Shown: in pieces, positions 27,701 through 33,700 of the stretch
How the letters are laid out: each line of letters starts with the position of its first letter
Numbering within the stretch: position 1 is the first letter of the stretch
NCBI GenBank assembly: GCA_963720545.1
Contig: OY970399.1
Coordinates: 1,472,001 to 1,536,000 of the forward strand
DNA from: an uncultured Acidobacteriota bacterium
GTDB taxonomy: Bacteria > Acidobacteriota > Vicinamibacteria > Fen-336
Length of the DNA: 64,000 bases
Direction: 5' to 3'
Program-made: the position numbers

Positions 27701-30700
27701 AGAATCGCGCTTCACCGCGAGCGAGGACATCGAGGGCTTCGAGCCGGCGGTGCCGGCGGCGAAGACCGGGCTGCGCATGGACCTGGAAAAGGCGATCCAG
27801 CACCTGCCCGCCGGCGCGCGGCGCATCTTCGTGCTGCACGACGTCGAAGGCTACAAGCACGAAGAGATCGCGAACATGACCGGCCTTGCGGTCGGCACAT
27901 CGAAAGCGCAGCTCCACCGGGCACGGCGGATGCTGCAGGAGGCACTGTGTTCATGACGTGCGAAGAAGTCGTCCTGCATCTCGACGAAGCGCAACAGAAC
28001 GAGGCCGCCGTTTCTCAGGAAGCCGGCGCGCACCTCGCCGAATGCGCCGGGTGCGCAGCCTACGCCACGTTCCTCGCGCAGCTGCGCACCGAGGTCGCGG
28101 CGCTGCCGCGCTCGCTGGCGCCGTCGCGCGACCTGTGGGCGGACATCGAACAGCAGATCGCGAAGGAGCGCGTGGTCCCGATCACGCGCTTCCGCACCGC
28201 CGCCTTCGCGCCGTGGCTTGCTGCGGCGGCGGCGCTCATCGTCGGCGTCGGCGCCGGCATGTGGTGGATGAAGACGCAGCCGGCGAGCAACACCGCACCA
28301 ACGCAAGTCGCAACGGCCGCGACGCCGGCTTCGTCCGCTCCGTCGCCAACTGCGTCGGCGCCTGAGCCGGCGTCGTCCGCTCCGGCCAGCGCAATCCCGG
28401 TGGCCGCGCAGCCGAACGCAACGGCGGCGGCGTGGCCGGCGTCGTATGAGACAGGAGCCGCCGAGTTCACGCGGGCCACGGCCGACCTGAGGTCGGCGCT
28501 GGCAGCCCGCAAGGACACGATGACCCCGGAAACGAGGGCCGTGGTGGAGAAGAACCTTGCGGTGATCGACACGGCCCTGCGGGACATCGAGAGCGCCTTG
28601 AGGAAGGACCCGAACAACAGCGACCTGGTGCGGATGCTGGGCGCCATGCGCAAGCGCAAGATCGAGACGCTGCAGCTGGTCGTGAAGCTGACGGCGTAGC
28701 GGCAGGGCCCGCCGATGGGAACGAAGCGGCAAAGGAAATGAAAGTGGGAGCAATCATGAATCGATTCGCAATGGCAATGCTGGCGACGCTGCTGGCCGGT
28801 GCCGCGGCCAGGGCCGACACCAAGATCGACGAACGCCGCGCGGCGACCAAGGACGCGAAGGTCTCGATCGAAGCCGGCAGCGGCAACGTCCGCGTCATCG
28901 GCTGGGAGAAGCTCGAGGTGCAGGTGACGGGCTCGATCCTCGAAGACCGGGCGAGCCTCTCGTTCGAGAGCGAGAACGGGCGCGTCGACATCAGCGTCGA
29001 CGCAGAGCACTACGACCCGCGCGCCGCCAAGGCCGACCTCGAGATCCACGTGCCCTTCGGCAGCCAGGTGTCGGTGGACGGCTTCGCCTCGGAAATCAGC
29101 GTCGCCGGCATCGCCGGCTCGGTGGAAGCCGAAGCCGTCAACGGCAGCATCAAGGTGCAGGCGACCGGCGGTTCGATCCATGCCACCACGGTCAACGGCA
29201 CCGTCGACGTGGACAGCAAGGGCGGCGCCGTCCATGCCGAGTCGGTGAACGGCCGGGTGAGCGTGCGCGGCGGCGCCGACAACCTCGAAGCGAGCACGGT
29301 GAACGGCGAGCTGGTGGTTGCCATCGGCCGCTCGAGCAATGTCGACCTGCAGACCGTCTCGGGCCCGCTGCAGTTCAGCGGCACGATCGCGGACGCGGGT
29401 TCGATGAGCGCCGAAAGCGTCTCGGGCTCGATCGACCTCGACTTTGGCGCCGGCCAGAACGCGACAGTAGACATCACCACCTTCAGCGGCAGCATCCAGG
29501 GCGGCCCCAAGGGCCGCCGCAAGGGCAAGCGCTGGCACGAAGGCGAAAAGACCACCGAGATCACCATCGGCACCGGCAGCGCCAAAGTATCGGTCAACAC
29601 CCTGAGCGGCGCCATCAACGTCAAGGGCGCCGACATGGAAGTGGAACCGTCCACCGACCAGCAGTAGCCGCCGCTCGTACCAGCCGTCCGCAACGCCCTG
29701 GCCCCACGCCAGGGCGTTTTTTTATCGGAAGGTCCAGGTCATCGGCGGATGGCTGCGGTTCGATCCCATCCGCCGATTTTCGTTACGGGATTCGTTGCCG
29801 TCGGATGCTTCGTTCCTATTCCCTGGAAGATTCCTTCCCTTACGCTCGAAACGCGCACAGCCAACTGCGTCCGGACGCAGTTGGCCAAACGTGGCTACAC
29901 GGTGGGCTGGATGCGGAAGACGTAGCCCGTGAGCGGCGAGGTGAGCGAGCGGACGAAGGCCTGGGCGGCCGCGGCGGCGGGAACTGGCGTGAAGCCGGCG
30001 AAGGTGTCGCCGTAGTGGGCGATCGATTCGCTGAAGACGGTGGGGCTGACGGCGTTGATGCGGAGGCCGCGGGGCATTTCTACTGCCGCTGCCATCACCC
30101 AGGCTTCGAGGGCGCCGTTGACGAGGGATGCGACCGAACCCGCGCGCACCGGGACGCTGGCGAGGATGCCGGTGATGATCGTGAACGAGCCGCCGTCGTT
30201 GACTCGGTCGAGGCCCTGGCGCACCAGTTCCACCTGGCCCAGCAGCTTGTCGCGGGTGCCTGCCTCGAAATCGGCGCGGGTCAGGTTGACGAGCGGCTTG
30301 AATGGCACCGAGCCGGCGGCACAGATGACCGCGTCCACCTTGCCAACTGCTGCGTAGAGGGCGGTTATCGAATCAGGTTTGGTGATGTCTACGGCCAGCT
30401 TGCCCTTGCGACTCGCGCCGACGACCTCATGGTTCCTCTCCGACAGCGCCTCGTTGATCGCGGATCCCAGCACGCCCGATGCGCCGACGAGAAGTATCTT
30501 CATGGCTGCATGCTAGAACGCGAGGCCAGCGTTGAGGTAGAAGCGGCTGCCTGCGAATGGGCCCGCGGAACCCTTGCGCAGCGGCACCGCGTAGCCGCCG
30601 GCAAGCGTCATCGGCACGATGTGGAACACCATGAGGTCTGCGCCGATCTGCGCGCCGGCCGAGACGGCGGCATCGTGCCAGTCGAAGTCGGCCGGCACGC

Positions 30701-33700
30701 TGACGGGAAAGCCGTGCCACGCGATCGCGGAATCGAGGAAGGCCGCGGCGTGGATGTGGCGCACGAATATCGGCAACGAACGGATGCCGCGTTGCGGGTG
30801 CGCGAGCGGCACGCGCAGTTCGGCGTTGGCGTAGGCCAGGTCCCTTCCGGTGAGGGCGCCACCGTCGAAGCCGCGCAGCACCGAAGGGCGTACGCGGCCG
30901 ACGTCGAACAAGCCGGCGTCCACGAAGCCGCCGGCTGCGAACGAGTCGAAGAAGCGTGGCTCGCCGAAGGTGGTGCCGGCACCGGCCGTCATTGCCAAAA
31001 CCGCGTTCCCCGCGACGCGTGCGTACCCGCGCAAGTCGGCGTTGAGCCGCGTGAGCGACAGGTCGCTGCCGAAGGCGCGCGCCTCGTGCAGCACCGACAC
31101 CTGGGCCTGCACTCCGTCCTGCGCCGAGATCGACCACGGATAGCGCTTCAGGCTCGTGTAAACGAGGTTCGCGGCGAGTCCGCCAAGCCTCACGGAGCGC
31201 TCGGTCGAGTCGATGACGCTCTGGCGTTCGCCGCGCAGGCCCGCGGTGATGGCGGTTTCCCAGCGCACGCGGCGCACGATCGGCGTGGTTGCCCGGACGC
31301 TGAGCGACCGGGTGCGGACGGATGTGTTCGCGACGATGCCGCTGCCGCTGGTGTCGTCTTCGGCCACGAGCAGGATTGTCGGGCGCCACCGGTCGTAGCG
31401 GTAGAAGCCGCGTGCGCCGAAGCGTTCGGTTTCGAAGCCGCGGTGCACCTCGATGCCGTAGGCGTGGCGCAGCAGCGGATCGGCGGCTGCCGTGAGGGCG
31501 CCGACCTTCCATTCGCCGTCGTCGACCTCCACGAACGGGCTCCAGAAGCGCGGCAGCAGCTCGTGGAACGGCCGGTACGGCGCTGTCCGTGCCTCGCTCG
31601 ACGGGTCTGCGCGCGATACGGCGTAGGTGTCCGCGAACTCCGGCGCAGGCTGGCCGCGCGTGAACGCCGTGGTCTCGATGTCGTAGCCCGCGCCGCTGTA
31701 GCCGGCGAAGACCAGTGTCTTGCCATCGGGCGAGATGCCCGGCGAGAAAGCGCCGCCCACGACGTTCGTGACCCGCTGCAGCGGGCCTCCCGTCACCGCG
31801 ACCTTGTAGATGTTGGGAACGCCGTCGCGGCTGGAGCGGAACACGACCTCGCTGCCGTCGGGAGTGAAGCTGGGCTCGACATCCTGCGCTCGGTCGTTGG
31901 TCAGGGTTTTCATCGCGCCGCTCGCAAGGTCGAGAAGCACGATGTCGAGCAGGCTGCCCGGGCTCCAGCGGGCGGCCACCAATGAGCGGCCGTCGGGACT
32001 CGCGCGCGGCGCGCTCCACCTCGTTGCCGGCGGCGAGTCGGTGACTTCGATGATGGCGCCGCCGGTCATCGCGATGGCACCGATCTCGGTGCGGTCGGCG
32101 TGGCGGTGCGCGAAGAATACGGTGTGGCCGTCGGCTGACACGTCCGGAGTGCTGGCACGCACGCCGCGCGTCAGCAAGGTCACGCGCCCGCTCGCGATTT
32201 CGACCCTGCGCAGGTCCGAGCGGTGCTCGAACGTGCCCGCGACTTCGGTCTCGTCGAAGACCAGGAAACGGCCGTCGGGGGTGAACGAGAGGCTGCTGCC
32301 GCCGTTGCGCGCGCAGATGCGGCGGTCCCCTGTGCCGTCGATGCCGACCATGCGAATTTCCGGAAAGCGGTCGAGCGTGGCGCTGGTGTAGGCAACCTGG
32401 GTGCCGTCGGGGCTGACGCGCGGACCTTCCTGACGGATGCCGCGCGTCGTCAGTGCTCGCGCCTCGGTCTGGCCCTCGGCCGCGACCTTGGTGCGCAAGG
32501 CGTTCGCGGCTGCTCGTTCTTCGTCGACCCAATCGCGCCACGCGGCGCCGAACGATTGGCCGGTGACGTTCTTCGCGGTGAGGTCGTCGAAATACGGCAC
32601 GACCCGCCGCGACTGTTTCCTTGCCAGTGCCGGCAGCGTCGCTTCGCCGTAGCGGGCGGTTTCGTAGCGCAGGAACGCTTCGCCGTAAAAATACGGTGCA
32701 AGGCCGCCTGGCCAGGCGTCCAGGCCCAGGACGGCCTGGTCCTTGAGCGGCGGTTTGCCTTCGAGGATGGCGCCGCGCACCAGCATTGCCGAGTCGGGGC
32801 TGCGGCCGCGGCCGAACGCGGTCGCCGCGGTTTCCTCGTAGGTCGCGAGGCCCTCGATCATCCAGGTCGGCGTCAGCGTGTTGGGAAACAGGAACGGCGC
32901 GCGGCCGAAGACCTTGCGGCCAAAGCGGAGAACGCCGTTCGCTTCCTCGAGGTGCACTGTATGCGCGAGTTCGTGGGTGAGGATCTGCCGCAGCCAGGTT
33001 TCGTAGTTGCCGAACTCATCGCTGCCGTCAGGCGCGGCGGCACGGATCCAGACCAGTGGATAAGGCAGCGGCGAGGCGAAGCCGTTCGGATCGTCTTCGC
33101 CGTCGGCGAGTACGACCTGCACGCGCGGCATGGCGACACCGTAGCGGGCGCTGTGCCGCGCCAGGATTTCGTCGGCGAGGGCCGAGGCGCTCGCGGCCAT
33201 GGCCTCGAGGCCCTGGTGGAAGTGCACGGTGGCGCGGGCGCCGACCAGGCTCTTGAACGCGAAGCGTGGCGGCAGCGACGCCGCGCGCACGACGCCTGCA
33301 GCCGGCGCGATCGCAATCAGGAGCAGCAGGGCGAGCGCGCACCGACGCATTGCGGGCAGGTTAGCATGGCGACATGAGCAGCCTCCGCGCACTCGCAGCC
33401 GCAGCAGCGGTGCTGGCTGCAGCGCCGGTGTCCGCGGCGGATTCCTGGCGCCAGTCGGTCGAGACGTTTCGCGCCGAGCGCGAAGCCGGGCTGCGTCAGG
33501 ACGGTTCGTGGCTCACGCTCATCGGCCTTCACTGGCTCTCCCCGGGCGACACGACCTTCGGCAGCGGTGCGGGCAGCGCCCTGCGTTTGCCCGCATCGGC
33601 AGCGCCGCCTGCGGCGGGCCGGTTCACGCTGGCGAACGGCGCGGTGCGCGCATTTTTGGCAGCCGAGGCCCACGCCACGGTTGGTGGCCGCGCAGTCACC

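Follow-up and report, generated by a model that had tools for sequence, protein, structure and literature searches.

The product of the gene at 30513..33350 (-) of the window (the whole stretch of 64,000 nucleotides that was analysed, from an uncultured Acidobacteriota bacterium) belongs to the 'WD40-like Omp85' subfamily and is probably an outer-membrane-tethered, periplasm-facing zinc endopeptidase. The reading frame consists of 945 codons plus stop, within a longer open frame that extends to 33392, and full-length collinear homologues are 895-998 aa long. The 945 aa comprise a signal peptide, a zincin peptidase domain, a PD40 propeller and an Omp85 barrel. The N-terminus is signal-like (MRRCALALLLLIAIAPAAGVVRA|AS), and the putative signal peptide, recognised by eye in the translation from its hydrophobic core and the VRA|AS site, covers residues 1-23 (33282..33350 (-)); no lipobox cysteine was seen in the translation at the putative cleavage site. 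The predicted gluzincin (thermolysin-like) peptidase domain, here called the N-domain, occupies residues 24-297 (32460..33281 (-)) and is followed by a six-bladed TolB-type PD40 propeller, residues 298-566 (31653..32459 (-)). Residues 567-945 (30516..31652 (-)) form a short conserved linker (PY..LLPR.W.P) and a POTRA-less Omp85 barrel with the C-terminus ...GLAF, the barrel itself spanning residues ~600-945. This three-part architecture of peptidase, propeller and POTRA-less barrel had been proposed in an earlier note and is borne out by Pfam/NCBIfam, profile and fold evidence.

The N-domain is modelled as a gluzincin fold with an intact HExxH...E site, which suggests zinc binding and activity. 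The AlphaFold2 model of the domain, built with 110 sequences, has a pLDDT of 93.7 and a pTM of 0.90 (69.7 and 0.69 in an earlier model) and puts HExxH and E166 on two long helices that follow one another behind a sheet of five strands. Foldseek returned 90 PDB matches at E<=1e-3, headed exclusively by M1 enzymes (1e-5 to 4e-4). An unfiltered PDB fold search with VIA-align (48,161 chains) gave 46 chains at Z>=8, and all 50 entries listed are zincin peptidases or zincin-fold proteins, with Z values of 15.7 for M30 lugdulysin, 13-14.5 for M1, 11-13 for M9, 10.8 for M61 and 10.4 for thermolysin. In hhalign against two M1 peptidases from this genome, the family profile aligned HExxH and W..EG.A.Y (E 5.7e-5 and 8e-4; probability 66% and 25%), a weak sequence link, and the E166 motif aligns to WL(N/S)EGF(A/T) of M1 enzymes. 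Three other proteins of this genome, namely an HExxH peptidase of family M48 and two unrelated proteins of the outer membrane, each score below 1% probability with this profile. The gluzincin fold claimed in the earlier note thus holds on the AlphaFold2 confidence, the M1 matches, the zincin matches and the invariant HExxH...E. Also as claimed there, Pfam on the whole gene reports only three PD40 matches (1.2e-21) and a match to part of Omp85 (hmm 134-262; 26 bits against a cut-off of 24), with no POTRA family; NCBIfam reports TolB and Omp85_fam, each below cut-off, and both scans leave the N-domain without any model on this gene. Scanned alone, the domain matched 0 Pfam families at E<=10, and its sequence had no relevant match in the PDB. 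BSP is matched by 6/50 family members and Peptidase_MA_2 by 2/50. In the closest ESM-Atlas clusters, Peptidase_MA_2 or BSP is present on 10-35% of the members, and some have the automatic name 'Peptidase MA-like domain-containing protein'; among the source names given for the best 120 homologues, none refers to a peptidase.

Judged from the alignments, conservation of the N-domain far exceeds chance, and no other part of the protein is as well conserved. Column identity averages 0.515 in the N-domain, where 36/274 positions reach at least 90%, 0.446 in the propeller and 0.434 in the linker plus barrel; of the 22 columns without variation in an alignment of 50 full-length sequences, 15 fall in the N-domain. 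A wider alignment of the domain alone comprised 129 sequences, namely the query and 128 representatives of 50%-identity clusters, 33-61% identical to the query; in it H126, E127, H130, G149, E166, G167, E173, R181 and G223 are identical in 129/129. The invariance asserted in the earlier note therefore stands for H126, E127, H130, E166, G167 and E173, and nearly so for A169 (126/129). It fails for L168, which lies outside the list of positions with at least 90% identity, and for E172, found in 50/129, the conserved second Glu being E173.

HELAH, residues 126-130 (32961..32975 (-)), lies on model helix 93-112 and supplies two predicted zinc ligands and the predicted general-base Glu. The third ligand is predicted to be E166 on the 'glutamate helix', within E166-G-L-A-T-Y-E-E173 (32832..32855 (-)), a segment inside model helix 139-153 that reads WMIEGLATYEE at residues 163-173. 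The spacing from the second His to this Glu is mostly 34 or 36 residues in the family alignment, against 18 in M1 enzymes, so the ligand is assigned by motif and helix position rather than by geometry. Y220 in A-P-Y-F-Y-G (32691..32693 (-)), conserved in 128/129, is a candidate transition-state-stabilising Tyr. A non-significant profile match (E 0.3) pairs it with the Tyr of PY.KG in 3cia, a cold-active aminopeptidase of family M1; the corresponding Tyr in M1 enzymes has a catalytic role.

Propeller and barrel are supported by sequence (Pfam, NCBIfam, family profile). The propeller matches TIGR02800 TolB at 2.8e-39, below cut-off, and the family profile matches TolB structures at 2e-48; six (P/A)DG blade motifs lie at residues 314, 358, 406, 452, 497 and 541. 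For the barrel, the Omp85_fam match spans residues 644-900, and the family profile matches BamA and Omp85 barrel chains at 1.6e-6 to 1e-3. L-R-G-F, residues 825-828 (30867..30878 (-)), is assigned as the loop-6 (V/I)RG(F/Y) motif of Omp85 proteins such as BamA; R826 and G827 are invariant in the 50 full-length sequences.

The design was catalogued in 2014 but is not known to have been studied at the bench. Heinz & Lithgow (PMC4104836) read the WD40-like Omp85 subfamily, which like the target has a POTRA-less barrel, an N-terminal TolB-like propeller and an aminopeptidase-like domain, as a BamA-BamB-like fusion. Their main text does not contain the word 'peptidase' and does not discuss the domain found here to be best conserved. 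Table S3 of that paper, in the column 'best aminopeptidase hit', gives c1z5hB at 99.4 (Phyre2) for the WD40-like representative H1XQ58, beside c4k3bA at 100 for the barrel and c2ivzD at 100 for the WD40 part; from its architecture H1XQ58 appears to belong to the same sequence cluster as the target. A passage of PMC11358297 (2024), citing PMC4104836, ascribes to such subfamilies 'divergent WD40 and peptidase domains', and one in PMC11116518 still calls the WD40-like subfamily not well characterised in 2024. The description of the domain as 'unnoticed' in the earlier note was therefore overstated, given Table S3, PMC11358297 and the ESM-Atlas auto-names. What is added here, from sequence comparison, is that the peptidase is the best-conserved part and keeps its catalytic residues intact.

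In the proposed mechanism the protein would leave the cytoplasm via Sec and its signal peptide would be cleaved. The peptidase and the six-bladed propeller, both N-terminal to the barrel, would stay in the periplasm, tethered under the outer membrane. Zinc would be held by H126, H130 and E166, water would be activated by E127, and Y220 would stabilise the transition state. The propeller may filter substrates or serve for docking. A periplasmic location is suggested by the precedent of PlpD and by the general rule that a 16-stranded barrel has its two termini on the periplasmic side. In PlpD and other patatin-like Omp85 proteins (type Vd) an enzyme domain likewise precedes an Omp85 barrel; PlpD differs in being a lipase with a POTRA domain that forms homodimers, whereas the target is a POTRA-less peptidase.

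The original (2010) model of PlpD was self-export (PMC4104836), and by the same route the barrel could export its own peptidase and propeller, as in type V systems, giving a surface-displayed protease with which a soil oligotroph would digest protein from its environment. The gene occurs in sequencing runs from soil and rhizosphere metagenomes (DNA only), and in the close clade an exported Xaa-Pro-type neighbour could finish the peptides. Such display is nevertheless unlikely. As a passage of PMC11116518 reports, the PlpD model has been overturned, the N-terminal enzyme domain of that protein lying in the periplasm. A folded passenger of ~540 residues would have to be moved through the barrel, and the stretch between propeller and barrel is only about 35 residues long. 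The neighbour in question, a divergently oriented M24 metallopeptidase gene at 34273..35553 (+) (Peptidase_M24 9.5e-59, Creatinase_N), has a twin-arginine N-terminus (SRRDLL), and its product would be periplasmic because it is Tat-exported. It adjoins the target in 7/11 related loci and in 0/14 more distant ones, a linkage of the close clade only.

Within the periplasm-facing reading, cutting inside chains or of oligopeptides is more likely than M1-type aminopeptidase action. The M1 enzymes (ERAP1/2, IRAP, APN, LTA4 hydrolase, tricorn-interacting factor F3) share the thermolysin-like catalytic fold with the target (TMq about 0.5 in Foldseek), at 12-16% identity, and have HExxH, W..EG(F/L)A.Y.E and PY..G in the same order; together with the top Foldseek matches and the Phyre2 hit of 2014, labelled as an aminopeptidase, this would fit an enzyme that trims N-terminal residues from periplasmic peptides. 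That specificity is improbable: GxMEN occurs in 0/273 family proteins, Pfam Peptidase_M1 (PF01433) does not match the target, the domain begins directly after the signal peptide and leaves no space for the M1 N-terminal sandwich, and a propeller, not the M1 C-terminal domain, comes after it. The best unfiltered structural match, with M9 collagenases scoring on a par with M1 enzymes, is M30 lugdulysin (7bb8), with 239/274 residues aligned over the whole domain, at 14% identity and an rmsd of 5.5 A and without a sequence-level match. Like lugdulysin, M9 collagenases and M4 thermolysin, the target has a single catalytic domain without an exopeptidase cap; those enzymes are secreted and soluble, whereas the target joins its catalytic domain to a propeller and a barrel in the membrane. 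Equally improbable is a non-catalytic assembly factor on the BamA-BamB pattern of PMC4104836, with the zincin fold as a binding or scaffold module like the M1-like domain of TFIID TAF2 (7edx, 6hqa and 5fur among the structural matches): the invariant LRGF hallmark would suit it, but a mere scaffold would not need the catalytic residues, each kept in 128-129/129 sequences down to 33% identity in the most conserved part of the protein, and the propeller is of the six-bladed TolB type, not the eight-bladed BamB type (as described in a passage of PMC11358297).

The predicted endopeptidase is more widespread than the earlier note's 'highly conserved in Vicinamibacteria' implied, the domain being present in 75/201 Acidobacteriota and 56/61 Gemmatimonadota genomes sampled. 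In the related and more distant loci compared, no neighbouring gene accompanies the target from one lineage to the next as a conserved partner. A gene for a secreted DUF1684 protein (33374..34276 (+); 3.4e-45, signal-like N-terminus) separates the target from the M24 gene in this genome only, and was not found beside the target in loci L004-L014. A short-chain dehydrogenase gene 9 bp downstream of the target stop (29895..30503 (-); Pfam adh_short_C2 1e-14) was not matched by tblastn in any of 25 related loci and is not conserved with the target. An open frame of 487 aa elsewhere in the genome, the size of E. coli BepA, matches M48, so there is no obvious quality-control gap for the target to fill. 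BepA, an M48 metalloprotease that docks on BAM in outer-membrane-protein quality control, is a periplasmic zinc protease at an Omp85 barrel (PMC13478230; 10.64898/2026.07.01.735768), as the target is predicted to be. It comes from another peptidase family, the family profile giving no match to the M48 protein of this genome, and it is a free-standing TPR protein that attaches to BamA, whereas in the target peptidase and barrel form one chain. A paralogue of 1051 aa is encoded in the same genome (G000:C1, about 963,085-966,240), with a peptidase-MA-like domain, a PD40 propeller and a C-terminal barrel-like part in the same order as the target. The two are collinear at 26% identity (E 3e-20; hhalign probability 99.3%), and the His-to-Glu spacing of the paralogue is shorter. 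In Pfam the paralogue matches DUF6055 (28.5 bits against a cut-off of 27) and, below cut-off, Peptidase_MA_2, BSP and M9, unlike the target, which has none of these.

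The gene lies at positions 30513..33350 of the window on the reverse strand, where it is the single ORF, and its frame remains open up to position 33392. The translation is 945 residues long. Its N-terminus, MRRCALALLLLIAIAPAAGVVRA|AS, resembles a Sec signal peptide, and no lipobox is present at the cleavage site as read from the translation. The remainder is divided into an N-terminal domain (residues 24-297, hereafter N-domain), a PD40 propeller (298-566), and a linker with an Omp85 barrel (567-945, the barrel from about residue 600). The N-domain holds the motifs HELAH (residues 126-130) and WMIEGLATYEE (163-173). 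Because the G+C content of the region is high (about 67-71%), the gene is overlapped by many shadow ORFs; conserved antisense ORFs in its relatives are shadow ORFs likewise.

The AlphaFold2 model of the N-domain, built from a 110-row alignment, has a mean pLDDT of 93.7 and a pTM of 0.90. It consists of a five-stranded sheet and one long helix, followed by a helical lower half. HELAH is located in the helix of residues 116-135 (93-112 in model numbering), and E166 in a subsequent helix (139-153 in model numbering). A Glu on the helix that follows HExxH is the third zinc ligand of gluzincins, and E166 is the predicted ligand from its motif and helix position. Foldseek returned 90 PDB matches at E<=1e-3 for the model; those listed are M1 enzymes (IRAP at 1.1e-5, ERAP1/2, APN, LTA4 hydrolase, PSA) and the M1-fold protein TAF2, with 11-16% identity and TMq of 0.45-0.56. 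VIA-align, which is independent of Foldseek, compared the model with 48,161 chains and gave 46 with Z>=8. The 50 entries listed (Z 7.3-15.7) consist entirely of zincin peptidases and proteins with a zincin fold; for a few the function is unknown. The highest scores were obtained with M30 lugdulysin (Z 15.7 over 239 residues), puromycin-sensitive aminopeptidase (14.5) and tricorn-interacting factor F3 (13.8), followed by cold-active aminopeptidase (13.4), Grimontia collagenase (13.3), M61 (10.8) and thermolysin (10.4). By this method a helical model can show a best Z of about 14, a caution that applies to the N-domain as well; the match is nevertheless argued to be real because the list is uniform and the whole domain is covered. 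Alignment, model and fold searches agree on an HExxH motif carried by the active-site helix of a thermolysin-like fold.

Residues 25-295, used as the query of a word-indexed search, matched 586 proteins at E<=1e-3. The best 120 of these are 58-67% identical over the N-domain (one 99%) and nearly all 900-1000 aa long, with few shorter partial records (range 533-998 aa). The source names of the best homologues are 'Tol biopolymer transport system component', 'BamA/TamA family outer membrane protein' or 'hypothetical', and 'peptidase' appears in none of the names among the best 120 of 586. An exhaustive phmmer search of 1.84 billion cluster representatives with the 270-aa N-domain gave 4091 matches at E<=1e-3, of which 2212 reach <=1e-10 and 412 reach <=1e-30; 90 of the 150 listed have lengths of 850-1100 aa, and the rest are mostly shorter pieces. 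The query and 128 representatives with full domain coverage, drawn from the phmmer matches listed, were combined in a 129-row alignment. H126, E127, H130, G149, E166, G167, E173, R181 and G223 are identical in 129/129 sequences, and Y220, G90, P96 and P214 in 128/129. The earlier note had claimed a gluzincin fold with an intact site, which is borne out by the pLDDT of 93.7, the uniform zincin fold matches and the HExxH...E166 set in all 129 rows. Its list of invariant residues stands for H126, E127, H130, E166, G167 and E173, and has to be shortened by E172 (50/129) and L168 (not conserved). In a 50-sequence full-length alignment the N-domain holds 15 of the 22 invariant columns. Identity of 90% or more is reached by 36/274 positions of the N-domain, by 10/268 of the propeller and by 19/380 of linker plus barrel. 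By these counts of residue identity the peptidase-like N-domain is the part of the protein under the strongest constraint, so that a role as a passive scaffold is hard to reconcile with its pattern of conservation.

Some links to known peptidases exist at the sequence level. Aligned by hhalign, an 18-row N-domain profile matched an M1 peptidase of the same genome with a probability of 66% (E 5.7e-5), with HE..H placed on HE..H, W.IEGLATY on WLSEGFATY, and a 17-residue gap between them. A second M1 gene of the genome was matched in the same register (probability 25%, E 8e-4), and an M48 HExxH peptidase and two unrelated long outer-membrane ORFs of this genome, used as controls, stayed below 1%. 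Against PDB sequences, phmmer with the N-domain gave no relevant match and the 18-row profile none that was significant. The best entry for the profile, the M1 cold-active aminopeptidase 3cia, has a non-significant E of 0.3 and pairs W.iEGlAtyeE with WLNEGFTSYVE and aPYlyGeaF with VPYVKGQLF; the Tyr of its PYVKG is presumably the M1 transition-state Tyr. When 50 full-length homologues were scanned singly, BSP (PF04450) matched 6 (best 4e-4), Peptidase_MA_2 (PF13485) 2 (best 0.0072), and YgjP-like, WLM and M48 one each. In the nearest named ESM-Atlas clusters, 10-35% of the members bear Peptidase_MA_2 or BSP. The BSP and Peptidase_MA_2 matches point to relatedness at clan level only.

Family M1 is characterized by the exopeptidase motif GxMEN, whereas G.MEN occurs in 0/273 proteins of the target family. 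In M1 enzymes the Glu follows the second His of HExxH by 18 residues (HExxH-X18-E); in the target the distance is 36. The spacing in 119 sequences with a locatable motif is 34 in 33 cases, 36 in 78 and 37-44 in 8, so that 111/119 have 34 or 36. With the signal peptide immediately before it and the propeller behind it, the N-domain lacks the N-terminal sandwich and the C-terminal domain of M1. Peptidase_M1 (PF01433) has no match at E<=10 on the whole protein or on the N-domain alone, and true M1 genes of the same genome score 51-127 bits on it. The N-domain is placed in the gluzincin clan and outside M1 because it is without GxMEN, has the longer His-Glu spacing and is not flanked by the M1 domains. 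Aminopeptidase action of the M1 type, which the fold matches and the hhalign register might suggest, is judged less likely for it than endopeptidase or oligopeptidase action.

A paralogue of 1051 aa is encoded on the reverse strand of the same contig at about 963,085-966,240 (1086-4241 of locus L003) and is composed of a peptidase-MA-like domain, a PD40 propeller and, at the C-terminus, a barrel-like region. Its domain order is that of the target, with which it aligns collinearly (26% identity at E 3e-20; probability 99.3% in hhalign). DUF6055 matches it above the Pfam cut-off, and Peptidase_MA_2 and BSP (22.7 bits each) and M9 collagenase below. A GAF histidine kinase, a GGDEF protein and a sugar ABC system are its neighbours.

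The propeller shows six (P/A)DG blade motifs at 314, 358, 406, 452, 497 and 541, spaced by 44-48 residues. A 50-row family profile matched TolB structures at 2e-48 and downwards, and Omp85 chains 9ccg (1.6e-6) and 9hjm (3.8e-6) and BamA barrels (1.6e-4 to 1e-3); barrel-only BamA constructs were matched over profile positions 679-921. The Omp85 model PF01103 matched 29/50 homologues (best 1.2e-12). LRGF at residues 825-828, with R826 and G827 invariant in the 50-sequence full-length alignment, is taken to be the Omp85 loop-6 motif (V/I)RG(F/Y). The consensus F.D.G.AW at 871-878, presumably the FxDxG strand motif, reads F871-L-D873-S-A875 in the target, with Ala at the Gly position, and the C-terminal ...GLAF is assumed to be a beta-signal. 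No POTRA family was found on the target in Pfam at E<=10, and the gap between propeller and barrel is only about 35 residues. POTRA domains are typical of the superfamily, not universal in it, and their absence is a defining trait of the WD40-like and noNterm Omp85 classes. None of the Omp85 matches that are possibly bamA (at about 412, 813 and 2187 kb of the contig) is near the target, which is located at about 1503 kb. In the six-frame scan of the genome, Omp85 weakly matched long ORFs of 877 and 890 aa at 915-3548 (-) of locus L027 and 617-3289 (-) of locus L028; the Pfam scan of their translations gave nothing for the former and a weak Omp85 match only (20.8 bits) for the latter. Neither has a recognisable N-terminal domain or any relation to the peptidase domain of the target, and both are possibly further divergent members of the Omp85-like proteins that lack POTRA.

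Pfam reports PD40 (1.2e-21, in three stretches) and a partial Omp85 domain (PF01103, 26.0 bits vs a cut-off of 24, hmm 134-262) on the target, and no other family. NCBIfam reports TolB (TIGR02800) with 135 bits, far under its cut-off of 343, and Omp85_fam with 28 bits, and has no match on the first 300 residues. The N-domain alone matched 0 Pfam families at E<=10, and Peptidase_MA_2 and BSP have no match on the target above the curated cut-off, nor any at all. The statement in the earlier note that no Pfam or NCBIfam model reports this domain is thus exact, PD40 and Omp85 being the only Pfam families on the protein. The word 'unnoticed', also used there, is wrong, since the peptidase domain is already in print as a table cell and half a sentence. 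Heinz & Lithgow (2014) likened a WD40-Omp85 cluster to a BamA-BamB fusion (PMC4104836), and the word 'peptidase' does not occur in their main text as available. Their Table S3 (Phyre2) has a column 'best aminopeptidase hit', and for the WD40-like representative H1XQ58 it lists c4k3bA (100) for the barrel, c2ivzD (100) for the WD40 part and c1z5hB (99.4) for the aminopeptidase. The 'Metallo' class in the available text of that study is a separate one, defined by PF00149. PMC11358297 (2024), in the passage concerned, cites the same authors for 'divergent WD40 and peptidase domains'.

The target has a TolB-like propeller N-terminal to an Omp85 barrel by Pfam, NCBIfam, blade motifs and profile. 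It also has an aminopeptidase-like domain, as F3, the enzyme of 1z5h, ranks fourth in VIA-align as 1z1w (Z 13.8). On this predicted domain architecture it is assigned to the WD40-like Omp85 class, as a new member that escapes the models. The class is catalogued and experimentally untouched, and the architecture is in print and is not a new kind of system. The WD40-like subfamily is counted among those 'not well characterized' in a passage of PMC11116518 (2024), and a full-text literature search for a study of the class itself found two passing mentions only. The emphasis moves from a 'BamA-BamB-like fusion' to a 'membrane-tethered zinc peptidase', and the clade missed by current family models could serve as the starting point for a new model of a peptidase family.

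Close relatives are found in Vicinamibacteria and other Acidobacteriota MAGs (56-65% identical over the N-domain); more distant ones include a Vicinamibacterales record (40%) and a Longimicrobiales genome (34%). At E<=1e-10 a profile search detected the N-domain in 75/201 genomes sampled across Acidobacteriota, nearly always in frames of about 870-1100 aa. It was also detected in 56/61 genomes of the phylum of the Longimicrobiales genome, taken as Gemmatimonadota, often with 2-4 per genome. With one unpublished genome left out of each count (G024 and G258, respectively), the figures are 74/200 and 55/60. By these profile matches in the sampled genomes, the family is common in two soil phyla, Acidobacteriota and Gemmatimonadota. 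None of the sequencing runs listed as containing the gene is an RNA run.

In the best-supported reading the protein is an outer-membrane-tethered zinc peptidase with a periplasmic catalytic domain and propeller. The N-domain would bind a metal and is presumably active, and H126, E127, H130, E166 and Y220 are candidate residues for mutation. Barrel topology rules suggest the periplasmic side for N-domain and propeller, as does the analogy with PlpD (patatin-Omp85), whose enzyme domain was shown to be periplasmic and not secreted (PMC11116518). The propeller may have a gating or docking role. The WD40-like class joins an Omp85 barrel to an apparently active protease. A quality-control role like that of BepA is attractive by analogy with the available accounts of that protein. 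The bolder view of the target as a self-contained machine for the disposal of outer-membrane proteins, in which the barrel captures, the propeller holds or threads and the tethered endopeptidase cuts, is considered improbable. The POTRA-less barrel, with its invariant loop-6 RGF lock and a BamA-like lateral gate, would capture stalled or misfolded barrel proteins at their beta-signal; the unfolded chain would be kept or threaded by the TolB-like propeller and then cleaved by the tethered zinc endopeptidase. In such a machine a single polypeptide would correspond to the partnership of BAM and BepA, and the Omp85 barrel would acquire a third function in addition to assembly and translocation. 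The Omp85 proteins studied at the bench all assemble or translocate other proteins, according to the passage on them in PMC11116518. PorV (NF033710) was searched for in the source genome (94.8% complete, one contig) and not found. That the target replaces a missing BepA is rejected, since the same genome holds an M48 match in an open frame of 487 aa, which is the size of E. coli BepA.

Within the window a short-chain dehydrogenase gene lies 9 bp downstream of the target. Upstream of the target and divergent from it are a gene for a secreted DUF1684 protein (33374-34276, +), with a signal-like N-terminus, and one for an M24 Xaa-Pro-type peptidase (34273-35553, +) with the leader MTFSRRDLLL... 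The M24 peptidase is probably exported folded to the periplasm because this leader is of the twin-arginine type (SRRDLL). Its gene is the divergent neighbour of the target homologue in 7/11 close loci and in 0/14 more distant loci of the same phylum, so the link may be clade-level synteny and no more. The DUF1684 gene stands between target and M24 in this genome only; at one distant locus (L035) the target homologue has a DUF1684 homologue at a distance of about 5 kb. All-against-all clustering of the ORFs of 26 loci gave no shared neighbour besides M24, and the gene looks self-sufficient because no further neighbour is common to them. In a 1260-aa open frame at 35565-39347 (-), MacB_PCD and FtsX each match two stretches; the actual gene probably starts later and encodes a shorter permease of the MacB/FtsX type. 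A DUF4097 ('toastrack') gene at 28738-29667 (+) and an unannotated 389-aa ORF at 27530-28699 (+) are both conserved downstream of the target in two related loci, L007 and L009.
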